From Planctomycetota bacterium (GTDB taxonomy: Bacteria; Planctomycetota; PLA2; JAEUHO01), in NCBI GenBank assembly GCA_965223505.1, contig CBDCWP010000026.1, forward strand, positions 32,001 to 96,000: 64,000 nucleotides of DNA, given 5' to 3'. This document shows positions 4,462 to 57,903 of the stretch, piece by piece; positions within the stretch are counted from its first letter, which is position 1; the number at the start of each line of letters is the position of its first letter. A program made the translations under genes and the position numbers. The notes under the pieces are model-generated. The model did no database searches, was not told the DNA's origin, and was given only the letters and a program-made list of their open reading frames with translations.

Positions 4462-5643
4462 ATGTCCACCGAAGCAGCCACGACCGACAAGGTGCTGTTC
4501 GAAATCACGGAGTCTCACCTCAACACGGGCTTGCGGGGCTTTCCCGTCGGCACGTGCCGCACGAGCGCAGTCGACCCGGTCAACGGCGTCACGTACGGCG
4601 GCTACACGCTCGAGGACCTTCAAGACCTTCCGGCGGAAGACATCATCTTCCTGCTGCTGAACAAGAACCTCCCGAACGCGGAAGAGGCCGCGGCGTTGCG
4701 CGCCGACATGGCCAAGCGCAGTGCCATCGATCCGCGCGTCTTCGATGCGCTCCGCGCGCTGCCCAAGGACGGCCACCCGATGGAGTGGTTGATCGCGGGT
4801 CTCGTCTTCCTCGGTATGACCGGCAAGACGGAGGACTACCGCGAGGACTGCCTGAACCTGATCGCGCGCATCAGCACGTTGTCCGCGGCGATCTTCCGCA
4901 TTCGCGAAGGCTGGGGTGATCCCATCGAGCCGCGCGAGGACCTTCCGTTCCACGAGAACTTCGCCCACATGATCGGCGTCGAGGGCGCGTCCGAGGTGTT
5001 GCCGGAGTTGCTGCGTCTCTTCTACATCCTGCACATGGACCACGGCGGCGGGAACCTCTCGACGTTCGTCGGCAAGGCGGTCGCGTCCGGCAAGTCGCAC
5101 ATGTACACCTCGATCGCGTCCGCGATGGCGGCGCTCTACGGCCCGCGGCACGGCCGCGCGAACCAGGAGTGTCTCGCGTTCGTGAAGGAGATCGGAACGC
5201 CGGACAAGGCGCAGGCCGAGAAGCGCGTCCGCGAGATCATGGCGAGCGGCGGGCTGGTCTACGGCTTCGGACACGCGGTGCTCCGCCAGGAAGATCCTCG
5301 CGCGAAGATCCAGTACGCCTTCGGCCAGGAGCACTTCCCCGACAACGAGCTCGTCCAGACGGCGCTCACGTTGCGCGAGGTCGTGCCGCCGATCCTGAAG
5401 GAGAACCCCAAGATCCAGAACCCGTATCCGAACGTCGACGCGATCTCCGGCAGCCTCCTGACGGCCGCCGGCCTGCCCGACCCGGACTACTACACGCTGC
5501 TCTTCGGCTGGTCGCGCGTCGCGGGCATCGCGTGCCAGATCGTGGACGAGCGCAACTTCCCGGGCAAGAAGGACGGCCTGGCCATCTACCGCCCGAAGTA
5601 CATCGCGCAGGACCAGCCGCGCCGCACCCGCGCCGACGGCTAG
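4462..5643 (+). CDS. gltA: Citrate synthase family protein
   Basis: DHGGGNLS, LYGPRHGRAN, GFGHAVLRQEDPR and PYPNVD catalytic motifs. GAGG RBS. Confidence 0.9.
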   Translation: MSTEAATTDKVLFEITESHLNTGLRGFPVGTCRTSAVDPVNGVTYGGYTLEDLQDLPAEDIIFLLLNKNLPNAEEAAALRADMAKRSAIDPRVFDALRALPKDGHPMEWLIAGLVFLGMTGKTEDYREDCLNLIARISTLSAAIFRIREGWGDPIEPREDLPFHENFAHMIGVEGASEVLPELLRLFYILHMDHGGGNLSTFVGKAVASGKSHMYTSIASAMAALYGPRHGRANQECLAFVKEIGTPDKAQAEKRVREIMASGGLVYGFGHAVLRQEDPRAKIQYAFGQEHFPDNELVQTALTLREVVPPILKENPKIQNPYPNVDAISGSLLTAAGLPDPDYYTLLFGWSRVAGIACQIVDERNFPGKKDGLAIYRPKYIAQDQPRRTRADG

Positions 5644-5666
5644 ACACCCCTACACGACCCCACACC

Positions 5667-5704
5667 GAGCCGCCGGCGCCGCGAGGCCCGGCGGCTCTCG
5701 CTTT
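5667..5704 (+). terminator. Putative intrinsic terminator
   Basis: GAGCCGCCGG...CCGGCGGCTC stem followed by TCGCTTT, just after the citrate synthase stop. Confidence 0.55.
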
Positions 5705-5804
5705 GATCCGGGACGTTCGTTGGGCTGAGCGCGGCATCCGCGGCCCGGACTTGTTAGCCGGAAGTTGCCGGCATTCTTGACAGTGCGACGCCGGTCTTGC
5801 CGAA

Positions 5805-7595
5805 TTGAATCTCGTGAAGACGCTCCGCACCCTTCTCCTCGAAAGCCGGCCGAGCTTCGCCATCCGCCGCGGCGCGGCGTTCTTCATCGAGGCGGTGCTC
5901 TGGGCCTCCGGCATCACGGCGTTGGAGGTCAGCGCGCGGTTCGCGAAGACGGACGCGTCCGATCTGATGGCCGTGGCATGCGGAACACTCTTCATCTTCG
6001 TGATGGTGCGCGCGTCCAAGTCGGGGTTGCTGATCGCGACGCGCCACATCGGCGGCGCGCTCGTCGCCCGCTGCAAGCAGGCCGTCAAGCGTCTGACCCC
6101 GCGGTATGCCGTTGCGTTTCGCTCGCGACCCGAGGTGCCGTCGAAACCGGATGCCGCGCTCGACGTGGCGCTCTGGATCGGCGCGGTCGCCGCGGCCACG
6201 TTCGTCGCCTTCGGCGCGCAGATCTTCGACGGGCTGCTGTTTCTCAAGACGGACGTCTCGTACACCGTGTACCTCGTCCTGCTGGCGTTCGTCTGGGCCG
6301 TCCTCGCATTCGTCGTGTTCCTCGGTGCCGTTGCCGGCGCGCAATGGGTGCAGCAGATGGGCGGAGGCACGCGCACGGCGCCCACGCTGATCCTGTGTCT
6401 GGGTTGGCTCGCGGGCATGCTCGTCACCGCCATCGTCCCGGGGATCGTTTCGGTTGCCGCGGTCGCCCTCTTCGCGGGCATCCGCATCCGTTGGCTGTGG
6501 CGGCGCCCGCGCACGCCGTATCTGTTCTGCCGGCGCGATGCCGACGGCTACCCGCGCACGGTCCGCGTCGGACACTATCTCGTACAGGCGTACTTCCTGA
6601 TCGCGCTGCTGCTGATGTCCGTCGTTGCCGTGGGCCAGTCGCAGCGGATGTGGAGCGTGGCGTTGCCGGAGGGGCCCTTCGCGCTGACGACCGGACTCGG
6701 GACGTTCGCAGCGGTGAGCGCCGTTTTCTTGATGGCCCGGGTGGGCGCGCACTTCCATCGGTTGACGGGCAGCCGGCACCCGCCGGAGCTGCCCCTACGA
6801 CCGACGGCCTGGAGTCGCGAGCCCGACGAAACCGACGAACGCGCCGGCGAGACGCAGTGGATGCGTGTCGCCCGCGAGCACGGCTGGACCGTGACGCGAG
6901 GACCGCGCGCGCCGTCGGACGGCTACGATCTCGTGGCGGGCGACCCGAGCGACAGCCGGCGCTTCGTGCCGCGACCGGACCAGGACGACGCCGATACGTT
7001 CTTCCAGCTCCAACGCCGCTTCCACGTCGTGATGCGCCGGCGCTTCTACCGGCCGTTCAAGCGCCTGTACAAGGCGCTTCGCGCGAAGCGTTCCTACCAG
7101 GGATCCGGCTTCCTGTTCTGCCCGCATGTCTGGCTCGTGGCGGGCGTCGTACGTGACGTGGACCCGCAGGCGGTCCGGGGCTCGGGTTCGCTGGTCGGGC
7201 CGAGCTACGTCGGACCGCTCTACGGCGATCTGTTCGAGCCGCGGGTACGCCGCTATCTCGGCAACGTGTTGCGCAAGCTCGAGATCGACATCGTGTTCTG
7301 GGAGGACGCCATCCGGTACCCGGAGCTTCGACGCGTGTTCGGCGTCGCGTTCGAGATCTACGACCAGGACCGCGCGCCGCTGCAAGCGCGGCACTTCGTC
7401 GGCGTGCCGAAGGTGCGCGTGATGATCCACGAAGAGGACGCGGAATCCGACGGCAGCGGCAGCAGTGCGGGCCGCCCGACGCAGGCACCGGGCTACGCAC
7501 GCGTGTTGGTGATCATGCGCGACCGCAGCGAGGACGAGGACGTCATGTCGCTCGATCCGGAAGATGCGTCGTTGCGCAGCCCCGCGCTCGTGTAG
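5805..7595 (+). CDS. Hypothetical multi-pass membrane protein with soluble C-terminal domain (start may be GTG 5814)
   Basis: Long ORF with about 8 hydrophobic segments followed by a charged domain of about 270 aa. TTGACA at 5777-5782 upstream. Confidence 0.7.
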   Translation: MNLVKTLRTLLLESRPSFAIRRGAAFFIEAVLWASGITALEVSARFAKTDASDLMAVACGTLFIFVMVRASKSGLLIATRHIGGALVARCKQAVKRLTPRYAVAFRSRPEVPSKPDAALDVALWIGAVAAATFVAFGAQIFDGLLFLKTDVSYTVYLVLLAFVWAVLAFVVFLGAVAGAQWVQQMGGGTRTAPTLILCLGWLAGMLVTAIVPGIVSVAAVALFAGIRIRWLWRRPRTPYLFCRRDADGYPRTVRVGHYLVQAYFLIALLLMSVVAVGQSQRMWSVALPEGPFALTTGLGTFAAVSAVFLMARVGAHFHRLTGSRHPPELPLRPTAWSREPDETDERAGETQWMRVAREHGWTVTRGPRAPSDGYDLVAGDPSDSRRFVPRPDQDDADTFFQLQRRFHVVMRRRFYRPFKRLYKALRAKRSYQGSGFLFCPHVWLVAGVVRDVDPQAVRGSGSLVGPSYVGPLYGDLFEPRVRRYLGNVLRKLEIDIVFWEDAIRYPELRRVFGVAFEIYDQDRAPLQARHFVGVPKVRVMIHEEDAESDGSGSSAGRPTQAPGYARVLVIMRDRSEDEDVMSLDPEDASLRSPALV

Positions 7596-7754
7596 ACCGC
7601 TCATTCTCGCGGGGATCCGCAATTCGCACCGCCGGCGCGCCGTCCTCGTCTCCATGGGCGGGAATTCGGGTATCCCGAACAACAGCCTTGCAGTAGTCTC
7701 TGCGCCCGATTCGACCGCGTCGAGAGGCCGGTCCAAACAAGGAGGAAACGCTCG

Positions 7755-7850
7755 ATGCGTAAGGTCATCACACTTCTCGTTCTCACCGTCGTCTGCTTCG
7801 GCATTGCGGCCTGCACCAGCGGCGGCGGCTGCTCGACCTGCGGCGGCTAG
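7755..7850 (+). CDS. 31-aa small lipoprotein/peptide MRKVITLLVLTVVCFGIAACTSGGGCSTCGG (not in ORF track)
   Basis: Strong AAGGAGG RBS at about 7739-7745. Basic N-terminus, hydrophobic core, IAAC lipobox, tandem TAG TAG stops, then a 15-bp hairpin. Confidence 0.75.
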   Translation: MRKVITLLVLTVVCFGIAACTSGGGCSTCGG

Positions 7851-7871
7851 TAGAACGAAATCGCTGGATTC

Positions 7872-7906
7872 GAAGGGTCACGTCTCCGCGCGAGACGTGG
7901 CCCTTC
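7872..7906. terminator. Hairpin between convergent genes, probably a bidirectional terminator
   Basis: GAAGGGTCACGTCTC-cgcgc-GAGACGTGGCCCTTC, a 15-bp stem with one G-U pair. Confidence 0.7.
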
Positions 7907-7971
7907 TTCAATTCGGGACGGATGCACGCAAGGCACGGCGAGCGCGTGGACGTGCCGCCGACCCGCAACGC

Positions 7972-10452
7972 CTAGCAGCACGCCTCGCCCGGCACGCAAC
8001 CGTTCTCCAACGTCGGGAACGGTTGCGTCGGATCCGTCACCAGGAACGACGACTGGTACGGCGCGACGCGCAGCTTCGCCGCCGTGTCCGTGCAGACCTC
8101 CACCGGTACGCCGCGCGGGAAGCGATGGCCCTCCTCGTCCACGACGGCCTCGAACGGCCCCAGGAACGTCGCCGTCTCGCCGATGTAGACGCACCCGGCC
8201 TTCTTCTCGTACTTCCACGCGCGGACCGTGACCGTCAGGTAGGTGACGTCTTCCACGCTGCGCCACGGCGCCCTGCGCAGCACCTCCAGACCGTGGAAGC
8301 CGGCCCGCCGCAGCATCGACAGGAAGGCGTCTTCCGAGAGCGCGCCGGAGAGGCACTCGCCCCACAACCTGCCGTCGACCTTCTGGTGCGGCGGCACCTC
8401 CCGGTCGGCGACGATGTCCGAGATGACCGCGCGGCCGTTGTCCTTCAAGACGCGCCAGATGCCCGCGAGCACGCGCTCCTTGTCCGGTGACAGGTTGATC
8501 ACGCAGTTGCTGGTCACGCAGTCGACGCTGGCCGCCTCGACGGGGATCTCCTCGAGGAATCCCTTGCGGAACTCCGCCACGTCGAAGCCGAGACGTTCGG
8601 CGACCAGCGGTTTGTTCTCCGCCGCGACCGCGAGCATGCGATCCGTCATGTCCACCCCGATCGCGCGTCCAGTCTCGCCGACCTTCTTCGCCGCGATGAA
8701 CACGTCGATGCCGGCGCCCGAGCCGAGATCGAGGTAGGTCTCGCCCGCTTGGAGTCCGCAGCGCGCGACCGGACTCCCGCATCCGTAGAAGCGGTCCAGG
8801 ACGGCCTGCGGAATGTGCGACGTGTCCTCCGGCTCGTAGCTCGTCGGACAGCACAGCTCCTCCTGCGGTTCCTCCGCGGCGTCGCCGTAGAACTCGCGCA
8901 CGACCTTGCGGGCGGCGTCGAGATCGTAGGAGAGCACGCATTCGCTGTGGCGAAGGCGCACGCCGGGCTCCGGCGCCGCGTCTACCTCCTTGTCGCCGCA
9001 CAGAACGGCGCCCTGCCCCATGGCGCGCTCGATGCGGGCCGCGTCGAACCCGGCTCGGTTGCGATGCGCCTTGCGCGCGTGCACCAACCGGTCGAACGCG
9101 TCGGCGATCATGCCCTTGTGCAGCTCGCAGTACGGGTCGTGCGCGAGGAACGACTTCTTGCCGAGCTGCGCGGGGCCGGCGTGCCAGGCGTGCTCGAGAT
9201 CGCCGCCGCCGCACAGGAACCGCAGCGAGCAGTCGCGGCACACGGCCTTCTCGGTGAGCGACAGACGGCGGATGTCCTCAAGCACGGTGCTCGTGCGCCA
9301 GATCGTCTCGAGCGACTGCTCGTTGAGGTCGCCGGCCCGAAGGTCCGACTCGCCGGCGAGCGCCGCACTCGGGTACACGCCCCCGTCGGCGTAGATGCAG
9401 AGACTCTCCCAGCCCATGTTGCTCAGGTCGTGGCGCGTCCCGGCGCGCGCGGTCAGCCGTTGCTCGACGGAGACGTCGTTGTCGACCGTGACGTCGAGCT
9501 CGTCGGCGACAGCCCGCACCTTGCGAACGACGTCCAGCACTCGTTCCGGCGCCAGCTCGAGGTCGTCGCCGGCCCGGCCGCGGTGGTGCAGCCAGAGCAG
9601 GTGGTGGTTCTTGACCCCCATGCCGGCGAGCAGGCGCGTGGTGTCGGGAAGATCCTCCGCATTCGACGCCATGATCACGGTCGTGACCGTGACCCGCAGG
9701 CCCGCATCGACCGCCTTGCGAATCCCGGCGTTGATCTTCTCGAACGATCCTTCGCCCCGGCACGGGTCGTTGAGCGCCGGCGTGCTGCCGTCGAGCGAGA
9801 TCTGCACGCGGAAGCGGTCGGTCGGGAAGTCCGAGAGCGTGCCGAGACGGTCGTCGGTGAACAGCATCCCGTTGGTCAGGACGCATACCTCGGTGTCGTC
9901 GTGACCGAGGATCCATGCGATGAGGCCGACCATGTCCTTGCGCAGGAAGGGCTCGCCGCCCGTGATGAACACGCGCTTCACGCCCAGATCGAGGCCCTGC
10001 CGGATCCACCCGCGCAATACGTCGGGCGCGACGCCTTTGTCGCCGTCCGGCCCGGACGACACGAGACAGTGCGCGCACGTCAGGTTGCACGAGTTGTTCG
10101 AGTGCACCCACAGCTCGCGCAGGTTCGCAAGCCGCAGACGCCCGGCTCGGCCCTCGTAGGCGCGCGCGGCGGACGGGGCGTGGCGCAGGAAGCCCTCGCG
10201 CAGGGCGTCGAGCGCGAAGCTGTGGACGTGCATCCACGCCTTGCCTGGGTCGTAGCCGAACGAGGAGCCGTACGACTGCGTGACATCGTCGAGGTTGCGG
10301 CGGCCGTCGAAGAGCGAAGCCAGTCGCTCACCCCGCTCGTCCGTCCCGATCCAGTGCGGTCCCTCGGGATCGATCAGGACCCGCGTGCCGTTCCGGCTCA
10401 GGCGGGCCATGGGGGGCGCGTGAAGCACGCTGGAGCCGTCGATCGTCGCCAT
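7972..10452 (-). CDS. PqqD/RRE-like + radical SAM + SPASM-like + ArsM-type methyltransferase fusion protein
   Basis: CNLTCAHC and TGGEP (radical SAM); CRDCSLRFLCGGG...C (SPASM-like); LCC, FYGCG, LDLGSGAG, SNCVINL and GECLSGA (ArsM/AS3MT); C-terminal CC. GAGGAGGAGG RBS. Confidence 0.85.
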   Translation of the reverse strand: MATIDGSSVLHAPPMARLSRNGTRVLIDPEGPHWIGTDERGERLASLFDGRRNLDDVTQSYGSSFGYDPGKAWMHVHSFALDALREGFLRHAPSAARAYEGRAGRLRLANLRELWVHSNNSCNLTCAHCLVSSGPDGDKGVAPDVLRGWIRQGLDLGVKRVFITGGEPFLRKDMVGLIAWILGHDDTEVCVLTNGMLFTDDRLGTLSDFPTDRFRVQISLDGSTPALNDPCRGEGSFEKINAGIRKAVDAGLRVTVTTVIMASNAEDLPDTTRLLAGMGVKNHHLLWLHHRGRAGDDLELAPERVLDVVRKVRAVADELDVTVDNDVSVEQRLTARAGTRHDLSNMGWESLCIYADGGVYPSAALAGESDLRAGDLNEQSLETIWRTSTVLEDIRRLSLTEKAVCRDCSLRFLCGGGDLEHAWHAGPAQLGKKSFLAHDPYCELHKGMIADAFDRLVHARKAHRNRAGFDAARIERAMGQGAVLCGDKEVDAAPEPGVRLRHSECVLSYDLDAARKVVREFYGDAAEEPQEELCCPTSYEPEDTSHIPQAVLDRFYGCGSPVARCGLQAGETYLDLGSGAGIDVFIAAKKVGETGRAIGVDMTDRMLAVAAENKPLVAERLGFDVAEFRKGFLEEIPVEAASVDCVTSNCVINLSPDKERVLAGIWRVLKDNGRAVISDIVADREVPPHQKVDGRLWGECLSGALSEDAFLSMLRRAGFHGLEVLRRAPWRSVEDVTYLTVTVRAWKYEKKAGCVYIGETATFLGPFEAVVDEEGHRFPRGVPVEVCTDTAAKLRVAPYQSSFLVTDPTQPFPTLENGCVPGEACC

Positions 10453-10640: not shown

Positions 10641-12110
10641 ATGCGAACGGTCCGACTCGTGCTGATTTTCGCCCTGCTCCTGGTTTCGACAGCGGCCGCG
10701 CACGCCGAGGAGCAACCGGCGACGCGACGCATCAAGATCCCGGCGGCCTCGCTCACCGTCGACGTGCCCGCCGACTGGACCGTCGACCAGTACGACGACG
10801 CGCCGCTCAAGCTGTCCAAGGGCAAGGCGGCGGTCTGGTTTCGAACCGTGGCGGCGGCGCCGGGCGGCTCGAACGACCTCCAGCGCCTGGCAGACCGCGT
10901 CGGCGCCGACTTGGCGAACCCGCCCAAGGTCGCTCGCTGGAAGGTGAAGGGCGCGTTCGGCGCGCGTGCGCTCTGGTACGAGGAGGAAGGACAAACGCGC
11001 TTCGCCGGCATCATCAACGTCACGGACAAGTCCGCGATTCACGTCGAGGCGTACATCAGCGAGCCGGAGCAAGACACCCGCAAGGCGCTGGAGGCGATCT
11101 TCGGGACCGTGAACACGACCGCGTTCGCGCACCCCGAGCGCCATGTGAGCTGGAACGATGGCTGGACGCTCGAGATTCCGTCCGACTGGACGCGGCAGCG
11201 GGACGAAGCCCACGCGAACCGGGTGCGCCTGCGCTCGCCCGGCCGATCCGGTGTCACCCTGCGCATCGATCGCGTCACCGAGAAGGCGGCCGCGGAGACG
11301 GCCGCGCAGCGCGTGCGCCGCATGATCGACGCGACGGCGGAGACGATCCGCGCGCGGGGCCTGAGCTTCTCGATCGAGGGCGAGGGCGGGGACATGGCCA
11401 TCGGCTCGACCGACTTGAAGCACGGCGATGCCGCGCCGTCGTTCCGCGGCCGCGCACGCATCTCACGGGAGGGCATGGCGCAGCCGATCTTCATGCACGT
11501 CGAGGCGCTCCTCGTCGGCCGCATCGAGCTGTTGCTCGCGTGCACGGGCGGCGCGAAGGATGTGCTCGAGGCGGCGCGCGCGACGGCGGCCACGCTGCAG
11601 GAAGGCACGCATCCGGGGCCCTATGAGATTCGGGTGCCGGCCCGGCCCGACCGCTTCGAGAGCAAGAAGGCGCCTCCGGTTCGCTTCGACCTGCCCGAGG
11701 GCTGGACGCTGGGCACGCCGCGAAGCCCCATGCGGCTGGCGGAGATCCAGGCGCCGGGCGGGCTGCACGGCTCCGTGTACTACTTCGGCGAGGGCCGGGG
11801 CGGCGGCCTCGAGCCCAACATCGAGCGCTGGAAGGGCCAGTGGACCGAGGCCGGCGAATGGAAGCGCGAGACGCTCGAGCTGGACGACGACATGCGGGCG
11901 ACGCTCTTGTCGGGTTTCGGCCGCTACGTCGCGCCGCTGCGGCCGGGGTTGCCGGACAAGCACGACAAGCCCGACCACGGGTTGCTGGCGGCGTATGTCG
12001 AGGTTCCCAAGGGCCCGCTCATGTTCAAGATCGTCGGGCCGAAGAAGGACGTCGAGAAGGCCGCGACCGCGTTTCGCAATTGGATTCGCAGCTTCAAGCC
12101 TGCGGACTGA
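10641..12110 (+). CDS. Secreted hypothetical protein with three P-x-(D/G)-W repeat modules
   Basis: Signal peptide ending AHA-EE; GGAGG RBS; VDVPADW, LEIPSDW and FDLPEGW; GGGLEPNIERW motif. Confidence 0.7.
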   Translation: MRTVRLVLIFALLLVSTAAAHAEEQPATRRIKIPAASLTVDVPADWTVDQYDDAPLKLSKGKAAVWFRTVAAAPGGSNDLQRLADRVGADLANPPKVARWKVKGAFGARALWYEEEGQTRFAGIINVTDKSAIHVEAYISEPEQDTRKALEAIFGTVNTTAFAHPERHVSWNDGWTLEIPSDWTRQRDEAHANRVRLRSPGRSGVTLRIDRVTEKAAAETAAQRVRRMIDATAETIRARGLSFSIEGEGGDMAIGSTDLKHGDAAPSFRGRARISREGMAQPIFMHVEALLVGRIELLLACTGGAKDVLEAARATAATLQEGTHPGPYEIRVPARPDRFESKKAPPVRFDLPEGWTLGTPRSPMRLAEIQAPGGLHGSVYYFGEGRGGGLEPNIERWKGQWTEAGEWKRETLELDDDMRATLLSGFGRYVAPLRPGLPDKHDKPDHGLLAAYVEVPKGPLMFKIVGPKKDVEKAATAFRNWIRSFKPAD

Positions 12111-12243: not shown

Positions 12244-13211
12244 AGCGTCAACGCATACACCGCGAACTGCGGGACCCAATGGTCGTACGCCGCATAGTCG
12301 CCCTTGTGCGCCGCGAACTCCTTCAGACCCTGCCGCACGTGCGCCTCGTACGCCTGCTCGAAACGCTTCCGCTCGGCCTCCGGCGCCTTGCGGCTCAATT
12401 TCTTCAGCGCCCACGCCCGGCTCCAATTCATGCCAAAGTGATGCGGCCTCGGCTTCGCGTGCACGATCGGCTTCAGATCCGCGTCGGCGATGGGCCGCTT
12501 CTTCAGGAACGCGTGAAGCGTCGTCTCGTCCAGCGTCTCGGCGATCAAGTGCACCCAATTGCCGAAACGCGAGAAGAACTCCTGTCGCTCATTGTCGGAG
12601 CCGAAGCTCAGTTTCTCGTCCCCGAGGAAGCGCTCACGAACGATCTCCTCGACCCGGCTGCAACCTGCATCGTCCTTCACGTAACGGAAGAAGGCGTGCA
12701 CCTGCACGAGCGCCCACGCGTCGTTCGCGTACTCGCGCGACGCGGGCGTCGGCGAGCCCTTCTCCAGGTACTCGATCAGGGTCTTGGCCTGCACGGACGC
12801 CACGCGCCTCAGCGGCTCGTGCGGCTTGATCGAATCGGCCTCGATCGCGAGGCGCAGGAACCAAGCGCGCCCGTACGGCAGCTCGAATGCCGGGCGCTTG
12901 ACCAAGTCCGCACTCTCGGCTTCCAGCGCTGTGGCGGTGAAACGCTCCAGTACGCGGTCGGCAAGGGCCTTGTGACGCTTGACCGTGCGCGCGATCCGAA
13001 GCAATGCCCAATGGCCGTGTACCGAGGAGTGCCAGTCGTAGCAGCCGTGGAAGATCGCGTGTTCGGTGTCCTTGCGCTCGATCGCGTCCTTCAGAATCGG
13101 CACGAACGCATCGAGTGCCTCGTTCACGTCGATCGTCTCGTCGTCGGCGTGCACGGGCAGCACCCAAACCAGCAGAGCCACGCCCGCCAGTCGACGCACG
13201 TCAAACCACAT
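12240..13211 (-). CDS. DUF2891 family protein (start uncertain, ATG 13211 or GTG 13199)
   Basis: FHGCYDWHSSVHGHW, FELPYGRAWFL, HHFGMNWSRAW and HWVPQFAVYAL. Signal peptide ending VHA-DD. Confidence 0.8.
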   Translation of the reverse strand: MWFDVRRLAGVALLVWVLPVHADDETIDVNEALDAFVPILKDAIERKDTEHAIFHGCYDWHSSVHGHWALLRIARTVKRHKALADRVLERFTATALEAESADLVKRPAFELPYGRAWFLRLAIEADSIKPHEPLRRVASVQAKTLIEYLEKGSPTPASREYANDAWALVQVHAFFRYVKDDAGCSRVEEIVRERFLGDEKLSFGSDNERQEFFSRFGNWVHLIAETLDETTLHAFLKKRPIADADLKPIVHAKPRPHHFGMNWSRAWALKKLSRKAPEAERKRFEQAYEAHVRQGLKEFAAHKGDYAAYDHWVPQFAVYALTL

Positions 13212-37262: not shown

Positions 37263-38891
37263 ATGCGACTTCGCGTCCTTGCCTGGCTCTTGCTCGTGGG
37301 ACTCTCCGCATGCGGAGGAACGTCAGGCTCGACGCCGCAGCCGCCGTCCTCGCCCCCCGGCGACGAGAGTGTCATCCTTCCGCCGCCGACGTCCGCGGCG
37401 TTGTTGGCATTCGAGCCGTTCAACTACCCTGACACGTCCTATCCGTCGGGCTTGAGCGGCCAGGAGGGCGGGTTCGGCTTCGCCCATCCGTGGAACGACG
37501 CGGACGGGGACGTTCAAGACCGCGTCATCGGCGGCGATCAGCTCGTTGTCACGAGTCCGCTGGCGCCGCCGTCCACCGGCGGACGCTCGATTCACTTCGG
37601 GACGTCGAGTACCGCGATCTTCCGCGATCTCGATACCGAGTACGGCGCGGACGACACCGAGATCTGGGTGAGCGTGCGTTGGATCTCGACGGACACCGCG
37701 GCGTCGGAGGGACTACAGGTGATCGACTTCAACCGCGCCGACGGCGGGTTCGGCACGGTCGTCGGACAGATTCGTGGTCTCGCGAACGACGACCTGCTCG
37801 ATGGGATGTACGAGGTCGGGCACCACCCCACGCGAACGAGCGCGGATCTCGGCCCCCGTGACCAGGCGGCCCACTTCCTCGTCCTACGTTTCACCTTCGG
37901 CGTCGGCGACGTAGACACCGTCGACGCATGGATCGACCCGACGGACGGTGGATTCGATCGCGTCGCGTCCGACGCGACGGTGCAGGCGACGAACGCCGCG
38001 TTCAGCCGCGTGACGCTCCGTTCCGCCGCGGCGGACAGTATCGATGAATTGCGGATCGGCACGACGAAGAACGCCGTGATCCAGCCCTCGCAGCGCATGA
38101 CCGTCTACCGGATCGGCAACAGTCTCACGTGGGACTCGCAGCCCAACGGCATCGAGGCGCTCGCCGGTCAGCGGCAGTACTTGCACGACGAGGGGTACCA
38201 CATCCGCTGCGGCCAGACGCTCGAGAACATCTGGGCCGTTCCGAACGACACGTGCGTTGCGCCGGTGCCGGAGTACGGAACGTTCACGGGCGCCCTGAGC
38301 ACGAAGACCTGGAACGCCGTCACGATGCAACCGTTTCCCGGGGGCACGTCGACGCTGCTGGACGACGAGGAAACGATCCTGAACATGATCGATCTCGCGC
38401 GGCAGCATGCCGGCAACGCGAAGACGCGCTACTACATCTACGCGGCGTGGCCACAGCGCACGAACTACGCCGCCTCTTGGGACCGTGCCGTTGCCGACGA
38501 CGACGCGGCGCCGACGGTCATGGCTCGCGAGTACTTCGAGCATCTCGTGACGCGGGTTCGCGACGCAACGGGGGCCGCGGTGTACGTCATTCCCGTGGGC
38601 GAGGTGCTCTACGAGCTGGACGGGCGCTTGCGCGCCGGACAGGTTCCCGGCCTCACGGGCATTGCCGACCTCTACCGCGACGACACGCACCTCGCGCTGG
38701 ACACGGGGCGTTTCGTCGCGGGGCTGACCGTGTTCAGCACGCTCTACGCCCAGGATCCGAGCGGGATCGTCAAGCCGGAGCAGTACTACGGCGCGAGCGA
38801 CCTGCCGTTCACGGCGGAGCTCTACGCAGCCGTGTACGGCGCGGTTTGGACGGTCGTCTCCACACACCCGGCCACCGGCGTCGCGCCCTGA
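37263..38891 (+). CDS. Lipoprotein with beta-rich N-terminal domain and SGNH-like C-terminal domain
   Basis: LSAC lipobox; IGNSLT and DDTH (SGNH-like blocks). Confidence 0.7.
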   Translation: MRLRVLAWLLLVGLSACGGTSGSTPQPPSSPPGDESVILPPPTSAALLAFEPFNYPDTSYPSGLSGQEGGFGFAHPWNDADGDVQDRVIGGDQLVVTSPLAPPSTGGRSIHFGTSSTAIFRDLDTEYGADDTEIWVSVRWISTDTAASEGLQVIDFNRADGGFGTVVGQIRGLANDDLLDGMYEVGHHPTRTSADLGPRDQAAHFLVLRFTFGVGDVDTVDAWIDPTDGGFDRVASDATVQATNAAFSRVTLRSAAADSIDELRIGTTKNAVIQPSQRMTVYRIGNSLTWDSQPNGIEALAGQRQYLHDEGYHIRCGQTLENIWAVPNDTCVAPVPEYGTFTGALSTKTWNAVTMQPFPGGTSTLLDDEETILNMIDLARQHAGNAKTRYYIYAAWPQRTNYAASWDRAVADDDAAPTVMAREYFEHLVTRVRDATGAAVYVIPVGEVLYELDGRLRAGQVPGLTGIADLYRDDTHLALDTGRFVAGLTVFSTLYAQDPSGIVKPEQYYGASDLPFTAELYAAVYGAVWTVVSTHPATGVAP

Positions 38892-42495: not shown

Positions 42496-44682
42496 CTACT
42501 GGAGGCCGCTCTCGATGCCGAGCACCTCGAGCTCTCGAACGGAGCCCTCGATGTCGAGCTTGACGTTGTCGCCGACCTTGCTGCCCATCAGCGCCTGCCC
42601 GAGCGGCGTCATGTAGTTGATGATGCCGTGCTCCATGTCCGCGTCCGGCGGGCCGAACAGGGTGTACGTGAGCTCCTGCTCGCCGTCCTTGAGCCGCACC
42701 CGCGTGCCCACCGAGACCGAGTCCGACGAGACGTGGTCCTGCGTGATCGCCACGGCGCGCGCCAGATCCGACTTGAGCTGATCGACCTTGGCCTGCAGCA
42801 GCCCCTGCTTCTCCCGCGCGGCGTGATACTCGGCGTTCTCCTTCAAGTCGCCGAACTCGCGCGCACGCGCGATCTCGGCGCGGTTCGCCGGCATCTCTTC
42901 GTTCTCGATCCGCCGGCGCTCGGCCTTCAACGCCTCGATGCCCGCCGCCGTCATGTAGATCCGCGCGGCGTCCTCGGGCGCCTCGGGCTCGTCGTCGCGC
43001 TGCGCCTTGCCGGCCGCTCCCGGATGCGCCGCAAGCACGACGCTCTGCATCCGGCCCACGTCGACGTTGCGAAGTCCCCGCGCCGATGCCACGAGCTGCA
43101 TGAGATGACGACCGCCCTCTTCGTCCGTCGCTTCCGCCGCCTCCTTCACCAACGCGCAGCCCTTCTCAGCCAACACGTCGCCCAGTTGCACGACGGCCTT
43201 CTTGTCCTTCGTCACGCCGCCCCGGCGCTGGCGGTACTCGACCGCGTCGATCACCTTCAGCACGCGCGTGACCAGCTTGTTCGGCTCGTGCTCTCGGCCC
43301 TCCCACTTGCCGCGACGCAGGCCGCGCAGGTACCACGCGTACAACGCCGGCATCAGCGCCGGCTTCTCGTCGATCTTGTCGAGCAGCTCGTTGAGCAGGT
43401 CTTCGCGGCCCTGCTTCTTGGCGCCCACGACGAGCACGTCGGCGCAGACCGGATCGTCCTCCAATGCCAGCTCGAGGAGGTCCGGCAAACCGTCTTCCTT
43501 CGTGCGCAGATAGCCCTCGGCCGCGCTCGCCCGAATGCGATCGTCCGTGATCGACTTCACGATCTCGATCGGGTCGTTCGACAACGCGAGGATGTCGCCG
43601 AGCCGCTGGCTGGCGTCCTCGCCCTTCAGGTCCGCCGCGACGACCTCCCAGCCCATGCGCGCGCCGGGCGCCTTCACCGTGCGCTCGAGCTCGCGGTCCA
43701 CGACCTCGATCAGGGTCGCGCGCGCCTCTTCATTCGTGCCCACCGTGGCGGCGTAGTCCGACACGACCTTCTGGCGTGCCGTCACCGTCGCCGACCGCTT
43801 GAGCGCCATCTCGATCTGCGAGCGGAAGTCCGCCTGCGCGACCTCGTGCAGCTCGATGCGCGGGTCGCGCCCCGAGCCGACCTCGAAACGCGGGTCGAGC
43901 AGCGCGGCCTTCTTCGCGTTCTTCCACCACGTGCTCCAGGTCGAAGGCGCCACCGCCTCGGGCGTGAGCGCGCCGCGCACGTTGCGCAGGTTCGCCGAGT
44001 TGCCGTACCAGCCGAGCACCTGCTGGAGCACCACCAGCGGCTCTTCCTTCGCGAACGCGCGCAGGCCCCGCCGGTCCACCATGCCGCGCACGCGGATGTC
44101 GTCCTCGGGTAGGCGCTCGAGGATGCGCGCCGCCGCGTCCACGTCCATCTCGTGGCCCGGGCGGTCGTGGAAGTCGATCACGCAGCGACCACGCTCCGGG
44201 TAGTACTCGACGATCTTGCCCACGCCCCAGCCGGACTTGTGAAAGACGTACGCGTCCTTCTCGATCTGCAGGAGCCGCTGCAACGACTCGCACTGCGTGC
44301 TCAGTTCAGCCGCCGGACCGCCGCGAACGCCGCTCTGCTCGAGCAGGCCTTCGAGGTCCTCCCGATCCGGGTGCGCCTTCGTCGCGGTCTCGATGACCTT
44401 CTCGCGCAGCTGTCCGTCGTCCGGGGGCGCGAGCTCGGCCATCTTGCCGTACACGGTGATCAGCTCGCGATGGCGATCGTTGCTTTGCAGCGCGTCTTCG
44501 AGGAGGCCGAGCATGACGCCCGCCTGGCGGCGGCCACCAGGCTGGCGCGACATGAGCTGGGCCGACTCCAGAAAACGGCGCAGGTCCGTGGACCCGGATT
44601 CAATCAGTTCCAACCATGTTCGCTCGGCGCCGTCGATGTCCTTCGCGAGGATCGCGCGCCGCAGGTCTTCCCAACGAGCCAT
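42496..44682 (-). CDS. greA: Long-form GreA/GreB transcription elongation factor
   Basis: C-terminal AREFGDLKENAEYHAAR and TPLGQALMG; N-terminal extension of about 570 aa. Confidence 0.88.
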   Translation of the reverse strand: MARWEDLRRAILAKDIDGAERTWLELIESGSTDLRRFLESAQLMSRQPGGRRQAGVMLGLLEDALQSNDRHRELITVYGKMAELAPPDDGQLREKVIETATKAHPDREDLEGLLEQSGVRGGPAAELSTQCESLQRLLQIEKDAYVFHKSGWGVGKIVEYYPERGRCVIDFHDRPGHEMDVDAAARILERLPEDDIRVRGMVDRRGLRAFAKEEPLVVLQQVLGWYGNSANLRNVRGALTPEAVAPSTWSTWWKNAKKAALLDPRFEVGSGRDPRIELHEVAQADFRSQIEMALKRSATVTARQKVVSDYAATVGTNEEARATLIEVVDRELERTVKAPGARMGWEVVAADLKGEDASQRLGDILALSNDPIEIVKSITDDRIRASAAEGYLRTKEDGLPDLLELALEDDPVCADVLVVGAKKQGREDLLNELLDKIDEKPALMPALYAWYLRGLRRGKWEGREHEPNKLVTRVLKVIDAVEYRQRRGGVTKDKKAVVQLGDVLAEKGCALVKEAAEATDEEGGRHLMQLVASARGLRNVDVGRMQSVVLAAHPGAAGKAQRDDEPEAPEDAARIYMTAAGIEALKAERRRIENEEMPANRAEIARAREFGDLKENAEYHAAREKQGLLQAKVDQLKSDLARAVAITQDHVSSDSVSVGTRVRLKDGEQELTYTLFGPPDADMEHGIINYMTPLGQALMGSKVGDNVKLDIEGSVRELEVLGIESGLQ

Positions 44683-44758
44683 GGGCACGTCTCCGGGGGG
44701 GCCACTGTGAGGAAAGAGAGCAAGGAACTGCGCAGGGTAAGCGCGTTTCCCAAACGTC

Positions 44759-44798
44759 AAAAAAGAGACCCGGCGGCGTCCGGGGAAGCCGCCGGGTC
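44759..44798 (-). terminator. Intrinsic terminator after tRNA-Arg
   Basis: GACCCGGCGGC...GCCGCCGGGTC stem followed by TCTTTTTT on the minus strand. Confidence 0.8.
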
Positions 44799-44806
44799 CA
44801 CGAAAC

Positions 44807-44881
44807 TGGTACGCCCATAGGGATTCGAACCCCAATCCCCGGCTCCGGAGGCCGGTGCTCTATCCATTGAGCTATGGGCGC
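44807..44881 (-). tRNA. tRNA-Arg(CCG)
   Basis: GCGCCCATAGCTCAATGGATAGAGCACCGGCCTCCGGAGCCGGGGATTGGGGTTCGAATCCCTATGGGCGTACCA folds into a cloverleaf with anticodon CCG and encoded CCA. Confidence 0.96.
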
Positions 44882-51806: not shown

Positions 51807-54407
51807 ATGAACCTCGACAAGCTGACCATCAAGAGCCAGGAGGCGTTGCGAGACGCCGTCGAGAAGGCGCGCGCGAACGGCAACCCCGAGCTCACCCCCG
51901 AACACCTGCTCTTCGCGTTGCTGACGCAGAGCGACGGTGTCGTGCCGAGCGTGCTCTCGAAGACCGGCACGCCCGTCCAGGACCTGACGACGTTGGTCGA
52001 GCGCGATCTTGCGAGCCTGCCCCGCGTGCAAGGCGGGTCGGAGCCGACGATCGGCAATCGCGTTCGCGACGCGATCCAGAAGGCGACCAAGATCGCCGCG
52101 AAGGGCGGCGAGGAATACGTGTCGACCGAGCATCTGTTGCTCGGCATCTTCGCCGAGGGCAAGGGCTCGGCGTTCGACATGCTGCGCACGCACGGCGCGG
52201 ACGAAGCGGCGATCCGAACGGCGCTCGAGGCGGTCAAGGGCACGCAGAAGGCCGACGACCCCACGCCCGAGGGGCGCTACGGCGCGCTCGACAAGTACAC
52301 GAACGACCTCACGCAGATGGCGCGGGACGGCAAGATCGACCCGGTCATCGGGCGCAACGACGAGATCCGGCGCGTGATGCAGGTGCTCTCGCGCCGCACG
52401 AAGAACAACCCGGTGCTCATCGGTCCACCCGGCGTCGGCAAGACGGCGATCGCGGAGGGCTTGGCGCGGCGCATCGTCGCGGGCGACGTGCCCGAAGCGC
52501 TGAAGTCGTGCCGGCTGCTGGCCATGGACCTCGGCCAGCTGGTCGCGGGCGCCAAGTTCCGCGGCGAGTTCGAGGAGCGCTTGAAGGCGCTGCTCAAGGA
52601 GGTCGAGAGCGCCGGCGGCGACATCGTGCTGTTCATCGACGAGCTGCACACGATCGTCGGCGCGGGCCAGGCCGAAGGGTCGGGCGATGCGGCCAACATG
52701 CTCAAGCCGGCGCTGGCGCGCGGCGATCTTCGCTGCGTCGGCGCGACGACACTGGACGAGTACCGCAAGCACGTGGAGAAGGACAAGGCGCTCGAGCGTC
52801 GGTTCCAGCCCGTGTACGTGGGCGAGCCGAACTTCGAGGAGAGCGTCGCGATCCTGCGCGGCTTGAAGGAGCGCTACGAGGCGCACCACGGCGTGCGCAT
52901 CCAGGACGCGGCGATCGTGGCGGCGGTGCGCCTGTCGACGCGCTACCTGCCGGACCGCAAGCTACCCGACAAGGCGATCGATCTGATCGACGAGGCCGGG
53001 AGCGGGCTGCGGCTGGAGATCGACTCGGTGCCGAAGGCGCTGGACAAGGTCCAGCGCAGCGCCGCGCAGCTCGAGATGGAGCGCTACGCGCTGGTCAAGG
53101 AGCGTGACAAGGCGAGCAAGGAGCGGCTCAAGACACTGGAGAAGGAGCTGGCGGACCTCAAGGAAGAGGAAAAGCGGCTCAAGACCCAGTGGGAGAACGA
53201 ACGCGAGCAGCTCAACGCGGTGCAGAACCTCAAGCAGTCCCTGGAAGACGCGCGCGAGAAGCAGCAGCTCTTGCAGCGCCAGGGTCAGCTCGAGGAGGCG
53301 GCGCGATTGCGGTTCGACGTGATTCCCGGACTCGAGCAGAAGATCGAAGACGCGCAGGAGCGGTTGGCCGAGGAAGGCGACCGCCGGATGCTGCACGAAG
53401 AGGTCAACGAGGAAGCCGTGGCGGAGGTCGTGGCTCGCTGGACCGGAATTCCGGTCACGAAACTCCTGCAGTCCGAGGGCGAGCGGCTCTTGCACATGGA
53501 AGAGCGGCTGCGTGCGCGGGTCGTGGGACAGGACAAGGCACTCGACGCCGTTGCGAACGCGATTCGCCGCAGCCGCACCGGGCTGACCGAAGGCACGCGG
53601 CCGCAGGGCTCGTTCCTGTTCGTAGGTCCGACCGGTGTGGGCAAGACGGAGTTGGCGCGCGCGCTGGCGGAGTTCTTGTTCGACGACGAGCGCGCGATGA
53701 TCCGCATCGACATGTCGGAGTATCAGGAGCGGCACGCCGTCGCGCGTTTGATCGGCGCCCCTCCGGGCTACGTCGGATACGACGAGGGTGGACAGCTCAC
53801 CGAAGCGGTACGCCGGCGTCCCTACAGCGTGGTGCTGCTCGACGAGGTCGAGAAGGCGCACCCCGACGTCTTCAACAGCTTGCTGCAGGTGCTCGACGAC
53901 GGACGGTTGACGGACGGCCAGGGCCGAACGGTCAACTTCACGAACACGGTCATCATCATGACGAGCAACCTGGGCAGCCAGGCGGTTGCCGAGGCCGACC
54001 TGAACGACGAGGCGATCGCGAATCGCATCCACCAGGCGCTGCGCGCGCACTTCCGTCCGGAGTTCCTCAACCGTGTGGACGACACGATCGTGTTCCACCG
54101 GTTGAACAAGGAGCACCTGCGGCAGATCGTGGACATTCAGATCGACCGCCTGACGGTGATGTTGGGCGAGCGCGGGATCTCGCTGACGTTGTCGGACGCG
54201 GCGAAGATGCAGCTGGCGGAAGAAGGGTTCGACCCGATCTTCGGTGCGCGTCCGTTGCGGCGCTTGATTCAGCGGGTCATCCAGGACGGCTTGGCGAAGC
54301 GCATGCTGGAAGGCGACGTGTTGCCGGGCAGCACGGTGCGGGTGGACTTCGCGAACGACGAGTACACGTTCGAGAGCCACAGCGCCGCGCAGCCGGTCGC
54401 GGGCTGA
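51807..54407 (+). CDS. clpB: ATP-dependent chaperone ClpB
   Basis: Two AAA+ modules ([16 protein letters not shown]), coiled-coil middle domain, RIDMSEY and GARPLRR. Confidence 0.96.
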
Positions 54408-55635: not shown

Positions 55636-57585
55636 CTAGCGTCCGAGGGTCAGCGTGACCGTGGAACCGCGGGCAATGCGGGTGCCGGCGGTGACGGACT
55701 GCCGTATGACACGCAGCCCGACTCCACGGACCGCGCGTCCCACGAGACGCACGGACAACCCGAGATTGGTGAGCTGCCGAACCGATGCATCGCGCGACTG
55801 CCCGATGGTGTTCGGCATGGTGACGAAGCGCCCGCTCGCCGGCGGTCCGAAGGTCACGCGGACTTTCGATCCGCGCGCGAGGCGCGAGCCGGCGACGGGG
55901 GTCTGCGTCGCGACGACGTAGCCGACGCGAAGCGGCGACGTCGTGACGTAGGTGAGCGTGAGTCCCTTCTGCGCAAGCGCTTGGCGCGCCGCGCCGAGTC
56001 CCTTGCCGCGCACGTCCGGCACGACGACGAACGCCGCCGCCGCGGGCTCGAACGCGTACCGAAACTCGACGGCGCTGCCGCGCGCGATGCTCGCGCCAGC
56101 GGGTACGGCCTGCGACACGACGCGCGAGGTGCCGGCGCCCAGAGCCGGACCGCGACCTCTGCCGCGAAGGCCGGCGTCGGTCAACAGGTCTTCGGCCTCT
56201 TCGACCGTTCGGCTCATCAAGTTCGGCATGATCGTGGTCTTCGGGATGAACAACTTCACGCGCTCCCCGCCTGCGACGGACGAGCCGGGTGCGGGATCCT
56301 GGGCATAGATCAGTCCGACGGGCCGGTTGGGCGCGAAGCGGCCGACGAGGCGCGCCCTGAGCCCACGCCGAACGATGACCGCGCGCGCCTGAACGAGGTC
56401 CATCCCGCGAACGTCGGGGACCTCGACCTCCACGTTCGCGCCGTCGGGCAGGACCGACGCCACGCTGATCCTGACGATGCTGTCGACGTCGACGTGGACC
56501 CCGAAGTCCGGCGACTGCTCGACGACCGTGCCTTCGGCGAGTGCCGACGCCACGCGTTGGATCTCGACCCGCAGGCCGATGTTCTCGATCATCGCTGCGG
56601 CTTCGGTGGCGTCGATGCCGAACAGGCTCGGCACCTGGATGCGGTCGGCGGGCAGGTCGCGTTTCCAGACGGAGAAGTGCAGGTGCGCGCCGTAGGGGTG
56701 ACGGCTGCCGGGTTGCTCCTGTTGGCTGGCGACGACCATTTCCGGGCGGGTCGCGCCGGGAACGAAGCCGATGTGCGGGACGAAGCCGGCTCGAATCGCA
56801 TCGGCCTGTGCTTCGTACAAGCTCATGCCGACGACGTCGGGCGCGACGATGTAGTCGCTGTCGTCGTCGGGCACGCCGAGATCGCGGGGACCGGCGACGT
56901 CGATGCGAATGCGCTCGCGCGGCATCAGGCTGCTACCGGCGCGAGGCGTTTGCGACAGGACGAGACCGCGCTGTGCCCTGCTCTCGCGAACGAAGCGCAC
57001 GTCGAGAGCAAGCTCGCTGTCGGCCATGAGCGACTCGACCTCGCGCAGGAACTTGCCGACGAGATTGGGAACGCGCACCGGTCTGCGTACGACTTCGATG
57101 CGGAAGCGGCCGCGGTACGGCAGACGCGCGTCCGGACGCGGCGACTGGCGAACGACCTTGCCTTCGAAAGCGGCCATGCCGGTTACGTACTCGACGTCGA
57201 GGACGTACGCCTCGTCGAGCAGCGGTCCGATGTCCTGTTCGTCGCGGCCGCGCACGTCCGGCACGATGGTCTGGATGAGGGGGGCGATCCCGACGTAGAC
57301 GACGACCTCGTCGCCGGCATCGAGTGGTGTGCCGGCCTGCGGGTCTTGGCTGTTGATGACGCCGGGCCGCGGACCGGCGATGGTCAGGACCAGGACGTCG
57401 AGGCCCTGTTGCTCGAGCTGTTCGATGCCGCGGTCGGCGTCTTTGCCCTTGACGTCCGGCATGACGAGGCGAAGCGGTGAGGGTTTGCCCTGGTCGTCGG
57501 CGAGTGCCGGCGCAGCGAACCACGCCGCGCCTGCGAGGAGGAGGACGAAGTACGCGGACGTGCGTGCGACGAGCTTGGAAGGCAT
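55636..57585 (-). CDS. Secreted protein of nine tandem PASTA domains
   Basis: Signal peptide ending ALA-DD; nine repeats of vP(d/n)vxG...V..Q.P..G; no catalytic domain. Confidence 0.85.
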   Translation of the reverse strand: MPSKLVARTSAYFVLLLAGAAWFAAPALADDQGKPSPLRLVMPDVKGKDADRGIEQLEQQGLDVLVLTIAGPRPGVINSQDPQAGTPLDAGDEVVVYVGIAPLIQTIVPDVRGRDEQDIGPLLDEAYVLDVEYVTGMAAFEGKVVRQSPRPDARLPYRGRFRIEVVRRPVRVPNLVGKFLREVESLMADSELALDVRFVRESRAQRGLVLSQTPRAGSSLMPRERIRIDVAGPRDLGVPDDDSDYIVAPDVVGMSLYEAQADAIRAGFVPHIGFVPGATRPEMVVASQQEQPGSRHPYGAHLHFSVWKRDLPADRIQVPSLFGIDATEAAAMIENIGLRVEIQRVASALAEGTVVEQSPDFGVHVDVDSIVRISVASVLPDGANVEVEVPDVRGMDLVQARAVIVRRGLRARLVGRFAPNRPVGLIYAQDPAPGSSVAGGERVKLFIPKTTIMPNLMSRTVEEAEDLLTDAGLRGRGRGPALGAGTSRVVSQAVPAGASIARGSAVEFRYAFEPAAAAFVVVPDVRGKGLGAARQALAQKGLTLTYVTTSPLRVGYVVATQTPVAGSRLARGSKVRVTFGPPASGRFVTMPNTIGQSRDASVRQLTNLGLSVRLVGRAVRGVGLRVIRQSVTAGTRIARGSTVTLTLGR

Positions 57586-57632
57586 GGTGCGGCTCCTTGG
57601 GAACGAGGGGGCGGATTGAATACACGCCGCAG

Positions 57633-57648
57633 CGCAAAGCGCAGGCCA
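57633..57648 (-). promoter_or_regulatory. Possible sigma54 promoter of the PASTA gene
   Basis: Minus strand TGGCCTGCGCTTTGCG with canonical GG-to-GC spacing. Confidence 0.4.
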
Positions 57649-57903
57649 TATGGCGCGGGTCTTCTCGTCGCCTGCGAGGCGGGCCGGTCGGGAACCGCAG
57701 CGAATGGGGGTCGCCGGGAGGGTGCAAAAGCGGTGCAATTGCGGCGCTTCCGCAGGCTGCGTCCCCGTCCGGAGACGCCGTTCTGGGACGCCGGGACGCT
57801 GCGAGCCGGACGCCGGAGCGGCCACCAGCGCAGACGGCAGACCGCTCCCCAGGCCTCTCCCCTGGGGCCCCCCAAGTTGACATCGCGCGAAGCCGGCCGG
57901 TGG

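Follow-up and report, generated by a model that had tools for sequence, protein, structure and literature searches.

A putative micro-lipoprotein gene with a CxxC tail in a lineage-specific spacer of a Planctomycetota genome

What is to be made of a 31-codon open reading frame (ORF) that stands tail to tail with the gene for a large enzyme? The frame lies at 7755..7850 on the forward strand of a 64,000-nt stretch of Planctomycetota DNA (contig CBDCWP010000026.1, positions 32,001 to 96,000; the whole of this stretch is hereafter the window), and the enzyme is an 826-aa fusion of PqqD-like, radical SAM, SPASM and arsenite methyltransferase-like (ArsM-like) parts. Two questions follow: whether so short a frame is a gene at all and, if so, what kind of product it would make; and whether that product has anything to do with the enzyme next door. 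To the first, the answer that we modestly favour is that 7755..7850 is a genuine, independently acquired micro-gene, whose product would be a 31-residue prolipoprotein carrying a membrane-tethered CxxC dithiol. To the second, the loci compared here do not support the peptide as a conserved partner or substrate of the radical SAM/SPASM/ArsM-like fusion.

The small gene and its predicted product

The original prediction described a ribosome-binding site, an ORF, a double stop and a hairpin at this locus, and each of these is present in the DNA where it had been placed. The elements that make up the small gene itself are the following.

7739..7745, + strand: Shine-Dalgarno (SD)-like AAGGAGG, read directly, with a 9-nt spacer to the ATG at 7755
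7755..7850, + strand: ORF of 31 codons and a TAG stop, translating as the predicted prolipoprotein MRKVITLLVLTVVCFGIAACTSGGGCSTCGG (coding part 7755..7847, TAG at 7848-7850)
7755..7811, + strand: predicted signal peptide of 19 codons, with the n-region MRK, a hydrophobic core and the lipobox I-A-A ahead of Cys20
7812..7847, + strand: predicted mature peptide CTSGGGCSTCGG, with the Cys+1 lipidation site, a Gly-rich spacer and CSTC (CxxC)

A second in-frame TAG (7851-7853) follows directly on the first, and four of the codons specify Cys. The SD-like heptamer occurs only six times in the 64-kb window, both strands counted; since the neighbouring fusion gene also has AGGAGG ahead of its ATG (10452), strong SDs appear to belong to real genes here. 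In a window of 68.7% G+C, the G+C content at third codon positions (GC3) is 0.84 for the small ORF, against about 0.84-0.95 for the window's long genes, and none of the ORFs that overlap it (7564..8490 on the + strand, 7601..7816 and 7783..7968 on the - strand) attains a GC3 above 0.80. Within the DNA that codes for the mature part we also observed a 12-nt direct repeat, 7815-7826 and 7836-7847 (ACCAGCGGCGGC and ACCTGCGGCGGC, encoding TSGG and TCGG respectively); on the basis of this repeat, the tail of the peptide may have arisen in part from a small duplication.

Could such a combination of signals arise by chance in DNA so rich in open frames? We counted all start-to-stop ORFs of at least 15 aa, and asked which of those between 15 and 60 aa match both a lipoprotein-signal regular expression of our own making and an SD-like motif. 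Only 2 of 1,223 did so in the window, and 1 of 32,047 in 80 related loci (1.22 Mb), whose selection is described below; the other match in the window, at 53285..53458 on the - strand, is unconvincing. A stricter filter, chosen post hoc once the peptide had been seen, demands a lipobox followed by a tail of no more than 30 aa with at least two further Cys, and is passed by the small ORF alone in the window and the 80 loci together. The small ORF thus exceeds chance expectation.

By far the most telling evidence comes from a single homologue. With the unaltered 31-mer as the query, a phmmer search of 1,835,955,588 representative proteins (E<=0.001, in a library to which no length filter had been applied) returned exactly one match, P0123, a protein of 30 aa that aligns over residues 1-30 of both sequences at 70% identity (E=1.1e-5). 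Its sequence, MRKILFALMLAVVAFGTVACTSGGGCSTCG, ends one residue before the window peptide does. The two signal parts are identical at 10 of 19 positions, and all nine differences fall within residues 4-18; these substitutions leave the segment uncharged and hydrophobic, and the start, the frame, the Cys and the end are all kept. The mature part of P0123, CTSGGGCSTCG, is by contrast identical at 11 of 11 positions, that is, at Cys20 and the ten residues after it. The nine changes in the signal part cannot be accounted for by fewer than 14 nucleotide changes over its 57 nt, and when the 11 mature codons were mutated in simulation at the minimal per-site rate of that part, they came through unchanged in 0.1% of 200,000 trials (P about 0.001). 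Such a pattern is what would be expected if the signal peptide were loosely and the mature peptide strictly constrained, and the fact that P0123 keeps the latter while the former diverges is our main reason for calling the small gene real. Its real existence, as originally predicted, is therefore upheld by the SD, the signal, the double stop and a homologue with an unchanged mature part. Because gene callers rarely report such short ORFs, this one match should be regarded as a lower bound on the spread of the peptide family. Other searches were empty: neither the peptide (by tblastn) nor window positions 5000-11000 (by megablast) had a match among plasmids, and the mature 11-mer did not occur in the literature searched. 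At the level of titles and the openings of abstracts, that literature held no description of either the peptide or the fusion family. The best ESM Atlas look-alike of the peptide scored 0.83, which is within the range often reached by shuffled sequences, and such look-alikes were not used.

As to the type of product, lipoprotein precursors are recognised by rules of the PROSITE PS51257 type, which call for Lys or Arg in the n-region, an uncharged core and a box of small residues before the Cys. Applying this rule by eye to both peptides, we find R2 and K3 among the first seven residues of each, and an h-region in the window peptide, VITLLVLTVVCFG, that is free of Asp, Glu, Arg and Lys (its counterpart in P0123 is ILFALMLAVVAFG). 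The box I-A-A-C20 of the window peptide is a classic lipobox, and also satisfies the regular expression [LVI][ASTVI][GAS]C with the Cys at 15-35. The lipobox signal proposed in the original prediction, with MRK, an uncharged hydrophobic core and I-A-A-C at position 20, is thus borne out, as is the mature 12-mer with its CxxC: the predicted sequence agrees, and 11 of 11 residues are kept in P0123.

Family models point, if faintly, in the same direction. At E<=10 the peptide matches lipoprotein signal regions only, and all of these matches are weak: LPAM_1 is sub-threshold at E=0.35, and LptM (NF047847) reaches 14.4 bits against a cut-off of 27.7 (E=0.03). We considered and rejected membership of LptM, given the sub-cut-off score and an alignment confined to the signal (residues 1-20). 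At the same E<=10, P0123 matches a RadB family lipoprotein model over residues 1-24. No Pfam or NCBIfam model covers the mature part at E<=10, and at the same threshold none of the precursor models in these libraries matches the peptide.

It is useful to set the peptide beside systems that it resembles. The entericidins and LptM/YifL, which we take to be very small lipoproteins of the pathway of Lgt and signal peptidase II, are alike in their Lys/Arg n-region, hydrophobic core, lipobox and Cys20; the mature part in the window is shorter than theirs, at 11-12 residues, and consists of a Gly tether and a CxxC. The MxCxxC of MerP and CopZ and the CxxC of thioredoxin folds are metal-binding and thiol-disulfide motifs, and the window peptide likewise has two Cys two residues apart that are predicted to be exposed to the periplasm; here, however, there is no folded domain around the motif, and no sequence similarity to those families.

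Taken together, these features suggest the following course of events. The MRK and hydrophobic signal would insert into the cytoplasmic membrane, Lgt would add diacylglycerol to Cys20, and signal peptidase II would cut after Ala19, leaving on the periplasmic side a lipid-anchored 12-mer, (lipid)-C-TSGGG-CSTC-GG. The working part would be the invariant tail, in which a Gly-rich tether may hold the CxxC dithiol; the dithiol could serve as a chelator for a thiophilic metal or metalloid (Cu(I), Hg(II), As(III), Cd or Zn) or, at the surface of the membrane, be reversibly oxidised to the disulfide. As(III) is a natural candidate ligand, for which proximity to the ArsM-like gene is the sole support. 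We infer the translation, lipidation, topology and metal or redox role of the peptide from its sequence, and we do not hold these with equal confidence. That the small gene is real and is expressed as an exported Cys peptide seems to us probable; that the peptide is lipidated in the manner just described is somewhat favoured; and a role in metal(loid) or redox chemistry via the CxxC is a tentative proposal, which we would not rate as the likely outcome.

The spacer, the hairpin and the convergent fusion gene

The surroundings of the small gene bear on both of the questions posed at the outset, and comprise the following features.

5805..7595, + strand: predicted membrane protein of 596 aa and no known family, without a Pfam or NCBIfam match; on the same strand as the small gene and upstream of it
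7596..7971, no strand: spacer of 376 nt that contains the small gene and has no counterpart in the syntenic relative L001
7872..7906, no strand: strong hairpin between two convergent genes, an inverted repeat with arms 7872-7886 and 7892-7906 and a 5-nt loop
7972..10452, - strand: PqqD-like/radical SAM/SPASM/ArsM-like methyltransferase fusion of 826 aa, with Pfam matches to Radical_SAM, SPASM and Methyltransf_31

The small gene begins 159 nt beyond the stop of the 596-aa gene. It is convergent with the fusion gene, whose stop lies 121 nt from its own end, and the hairpin stands between the two, starting 22 nt past the small gene. The hairpin arms, of 15 nt each, are 93% complementary, and positions 7845-7930 fold with an energy of -39.1 kcal/mol against a shuffle mean of -26.0 (z = -4.1; 0 of 200 shuffles were as stable). 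It is a strong hairpin, though not a textbook intrinsic terminator; it likely marks the end of the transcript, or acts as a stabiliser, for one or both of the convergent genes. A search of 7400-8200 against Rfam gave no credible match, the best being sbcD with 16.7 bits against a gathering score of 40 (E=0.91).

The most instructive comparison is with L001, the closest of the relative loci, which comes from a Planctomycetota metagenome-assembled genome (MAG), carries a fusion 80% identical to that of the window and shows synteny with it across 12 genes or more. In L001, 12491 is the last position of the 596-aa gene's homologue and 12490 that of the fusion, so that the two stops lie back to back (ctagctag, 12487..12500), and the 376-nt spacer, the small gene and the hairpin are all missing. 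The difference between the two sites, as read from their sequences, is an insertion or a deletion of a complete micro-gene together with its hairpin, and since the small gene is missing at the syntenic site, the lineage of L001 can dispense with it. Neither the window nor the 80 loci hold a second copy of the spacer, and a repeat search found no flanking repeats that might mark a mobile insertion there. An inverted repeat was observed at 7572-7586 and 7608-7622, spanning the stop codon of the upstream 596-aa gene. The micro-gene would thus sit in a lineage-specific spacer between two convergent genes, with only the hairpin in common with them.

Does the peptide nonetheless belong with the fusion, as the precursor or partner that the original prediction proposed? 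Of 521 confirmed relatives of the fusion in species-representative genomes, we examined the loci of 80, which include 70 with a near-full-length match and 75 with at least 300 nt downstream. None of the 80 holds a peptide that passes the strict filter, and tblastn of the peptide against them gave fragments at chance level only (best E=0.71). When 1,914 small ORFs of 20-100 aa lying within 1.5 kb of the fusion ends were clustered, the window peptide found no partner, and the clusters that did form were antisense shadows of neighbouring genes only. A search by composition, for ORFs with three or more Cys in which Cys, Gly, Ser and Thr account for 11 or more of the final 14 residues, returned solely the window's own peptide from 214,638 nt of near flanks, and two unrelated matches from 638,908 nt of far flanks. 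The claim of a precursor or partner is hence not supported, as no similar peptide, no conserved adjacent small ORF and no ORF with a Cys-rich tail was seen in any of the 80 loci; the small-ORF and tBLASTn check around homologues of the fusion, which found no similar neighbouring peptide, speaks against the link and leaves the gene itself untouched. The caveat that had accompanied the claim, namely that the two genes are convergent and not co-transcribed, was well placed. Co-folding of fusion residues 1-470 with the peptide gave a score of 0.01 and a mark of 0.32, which in a run made without controls is no evidence either way.

The fusion itself does not fall within any curated NCBIfam family, as every one of its matches there is below the curated cut-off: the best, arsenite methyltransferase, scores 224 bits against 263, ArsM of the arsinothricin type 190 bits against 500, and the sub-threshold matches include maturases of sactipeptides and of mycofactocin. 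The RiPP recognition element (RRE) that had been assigned to it (RiPP standing for ribosomally synthesised and post-translationally modified peptide) fares in part: the first 115 residues match PqqD below threshold (E=0.019, 15.7 bits against a cut-off of 23.4), which does not establish it in this protein, whilst a precomputed PqqD domain is present in 17 of 120 listed homologues, which is in its favour. Homologues are plentiful, with 688 proteins at E<=0.001 among 8,000 candidates scored; the enzyme P0004 is 90% identical. In an alignment of 25 diverse members the mean column identity is 57%, the last Cys is invariant and the CC terminus nearly so, within a conserved C-terminal GCxPGxxCC. The loci that were kept span Planctomycetota, Nitrospirota, Acidobacteriota, Gemmatimonadota, Elusimicrobiota, Thermodesulfobacteriota, anammox bacteria and others.

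Across 81 loci, the recurrent neighbours of the fusion are a GT2 glycosyltransferase (40), a PHO4 phosphate transporter (31), VTT/DedA (30), a pyridine nucleotide-disulfide oxidoreductase (Pyr_redox_2; 22), DUF547 (16) and redoxin or thioredoxin (11), each class having been verified by Pfam on one exemplar; none of these recurrent neighbours is found in the window. The family and its recurrent neighbours suggest an undescribed small-molecule pathway related to arsenic or to thiols. At five loci (L007, L010, L066, L067 and L071), TlpA-like CxxC redoxins with lipoprotein-like N-termini lie 0.9-2.3 kb downstream of the match, where they neighbour fusion or stand-alone ArsM-like relatives, and five loci from Thermoanaerobaculia (L025, L034, L035, L038 and L062) have a thioredoxin-type CGPC ORF upstream, of about 110 aa in four of them. 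We considered whether the peptide could be a minimal stand-in for such redoxin lipoproteins, and set the idea aside: the redoxin cluster, drawn from 11 loci, is a mixture of TlpA-like lipoproteins and cytoplasmic thioredoxins.

Two further enzyme-peptide systems invite comparison. SCIFF peptides (ranthipeptides) and sactipeptides, presumably Cys-rich precursors matured by radical SAM/SPASM enzymes, are alike in having a C-terminus rich in Cys, Gly, Ser and Thr beside a radical SAM/SPASM gene; in contrast to these, the window peptide has an export signal instead of a leader, its gene is in convergent order, and no such peptide occurs near the 80 relatives of the enzyme. TIGR04133, or 'rSAM_w_lipo', which going by the model's own description we take to be a radical SAM/SPASM family paired with a lipoprotein, is alike in that such an enzyme is encoded beside a lipoprotein. 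However, the window enzyme scores 65.4 bits against a cut-off of 425 and is not a member, and the pairing seen here is not conserved.

Elsewhere, the window consists of ordinary housekeeping genes, and a few of its ORFs deserve mention. The upstream 596-aa protein has its sole relative among the 80 loci in L001, at 46% identity, and P0003 yielded no usable ESM Atlas look-alike. A 489-aa ORF at 10641..12110 (+), divergent from the fusion, has no Pfam match and again a sole relative among the loci in L001, at 35% identity. Another lipoprotein-type signal, the second in the window, opens the 542-aa ORF at 37263..38891 (+), which begins MRLRVLAWLLLVGLSACGG and has no Pfam match at E<=1e-5. The 779-aa ORF at 42496..44835 (-) matches GreA/GreB domains at 626-775 only, which leaves an N-terminus of ~620 residues without a Pfam match, or else a start that is placed too far upstream; and the 729-aa ORF at 55636..57825 (-) carries seven PASTA repeats, with no kinase or transpeptidase domain at E<=1e-5.

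Weighing the explanations

Several observations weigh against a genuine lipoprotein gene, and should be considered together. The conservation of the peptide rests on two sequences, that is, on a single homologue, and an E value of 1.1e-5 for so short and compositionally biased a query is significant, not overwhelming. The simulation of the mature part would also carry less weight if P0123 came from a very close relative, although the nine changes in the signal argue otherwise. Next to this stands the absence of the small gene from L001. At the level of the DNA, a consensus promoter and terminator scan placed no sigma-70-like promoter near the small gene (0 sites); the hairpin has no U-tract, and for want of a run of 5 T in 8 the simple terminator scan passed it over; and the GC1 of 0.52 and GC2 of 0.61 are atypical for long genes, both values being explained by the composition of the peptide. 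As to lipidation, the box of P0123, T-V-A-C20, agrees with the wider PROSITE-type pattern alone, a scan of the window genes showed neither Lgt nor LspA, and the sequence does not distinguish lipidation from a cut made after I-A-A by signal peptidase I, or from a signal that stays uncleaved.

This last point leads to the alternative that we take most seriously, even if it is unlikely: that the peptide is exported and not lipidated, either as an uncleaved single-pass micro-protein with its N-terminus inside and its Cys tail outside, or as a 12-mer with three thiols set free by signal peptidase I. The small-x-small rule for that enzyme would accept I-A-A as well, the Thr that P0123 has at -3 is a poor residue for a classic lipobox, and very short preproteins may, we presume, engage Lgt inefficiently; yet in both homologues Cys20 follows directly on an Ala at -1, and such model matches as there are, weak as they be, are to lipoprotein signals. 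It is less probable again that there is no gene here, merely a chance frame in a spacer that functions only as a hairpin, with P0123 as the same spurious ORF in a related genome. High-GC DNA is indeed full of open frames, as the 1,223 start-to-stop ORFs of 15-60 aa in this window attest, and the single homologue, the empty site in L001 and the want of a promoter-like site or a family model would all fit. Against this, the ORF, which is of a rare kind, combines a perfect and ideally spaced SD and an ATG with a complete lipoprotein signal and two consecutive stops, and the confinement of all nine P0123 substitutions to the signal, with the mature part unchanged, has a probability of about 0.001 under equal drift.

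The remaining alternatives we hold to be much less credible. The RiPP-type explanation would make the peptide a substrate of the fusion, with the lipoprotein signal as the leader: its Cys-rich CxxC tail would be cross-linked, methylated or arsenylated in the cytoplasm by this lineage's enzyme alone, and then exported and lipidated. Such a pairing has in its favour adjacency (the 121 nt to the fusion's stop) and the liking for thiols that one would expect in the chemistry of an ArsM-like domain. Moreover, SPASM with radical SAM is typical of peptide maturases, matches to sactipeptide and mycofactocin maturases were found below threshold, the N-terminus is weakly PqqD-like with PqqD in a minority of the listed homologues, and the make-up of the tail, in Cys, Gly, Ser and Thr, resembles cores modified by radical SAM enzymes. 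The comparative data argue against it, and we consider it very improbable: the genes are convergent and not co-transcribed, none of the 80 loci has a similar or a Cys-rich small ORF, the 80% identical fusion in L001 does without the spacer, the enzyme is strongly conserved across phyla and keeps company with neighbours of a small-molecule type (GT2, PHO4, VTT and Pyr_redox_2), and the N-terminus of the peptide is an export signal and no typical leader. Scarcely more can be said for a remnant, in which the frame would be what is left of the 5' end of a longer lipoprotein gene, cut short by the rearrangement that created the spacer. The spacer is lineage-specific, and many lipoproteins do start with a Gly/Ser-rich linker after the Cys; but P0123 ends at the same place (30 against 31 aa), which argues against truncation, the mature part is the best conserved, the search of the representative library at E<=0.001 turned up no relative of greater length, and a double stop and then a hairpin follow. 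Least credible of all, to the point that we would discard it, is transcription attenuation, with the peptide as a Cys-rich leader and the hairpin as a terminator controlled by ribosome stalling. A short ORF with four Cys codons does lie just ahead of a strong hairpin, but there is no gene on the same strand downstream for it to regulate, and this is the reason for its rejection: what comes next is the convergent fusion, and the + strand has no further gene until 10641. The complete export signal likewise speaks against an attenuator, and no alternative structure suggestive of an anti-terminator was apparent, the 201 nt ahead of the small gene folding with ordinary stability (z=-0.16).

Should the independent lipoprotein gene prove real, its product would be among the shortest lipoproteins on record, reduced to a lipid anchor, a flexible tether and two thiols, and missed by gene callers and family libraries because it lies at their length limit. 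The invariance of 11 residues in the mature part suggests a specific partner or ligand. Regardless of what that might be, the peptide is a simple object that can be synthesised, and with which to ask how bacteria place dithiol chemistry, whether for metal(loid) capture or for redox buffering, at the surface of a membrane. The fusion next to it, which belongs to a widespread and as yet unnamed family resembling arsenic methyltransferases, may be the more rewarding target of the two.

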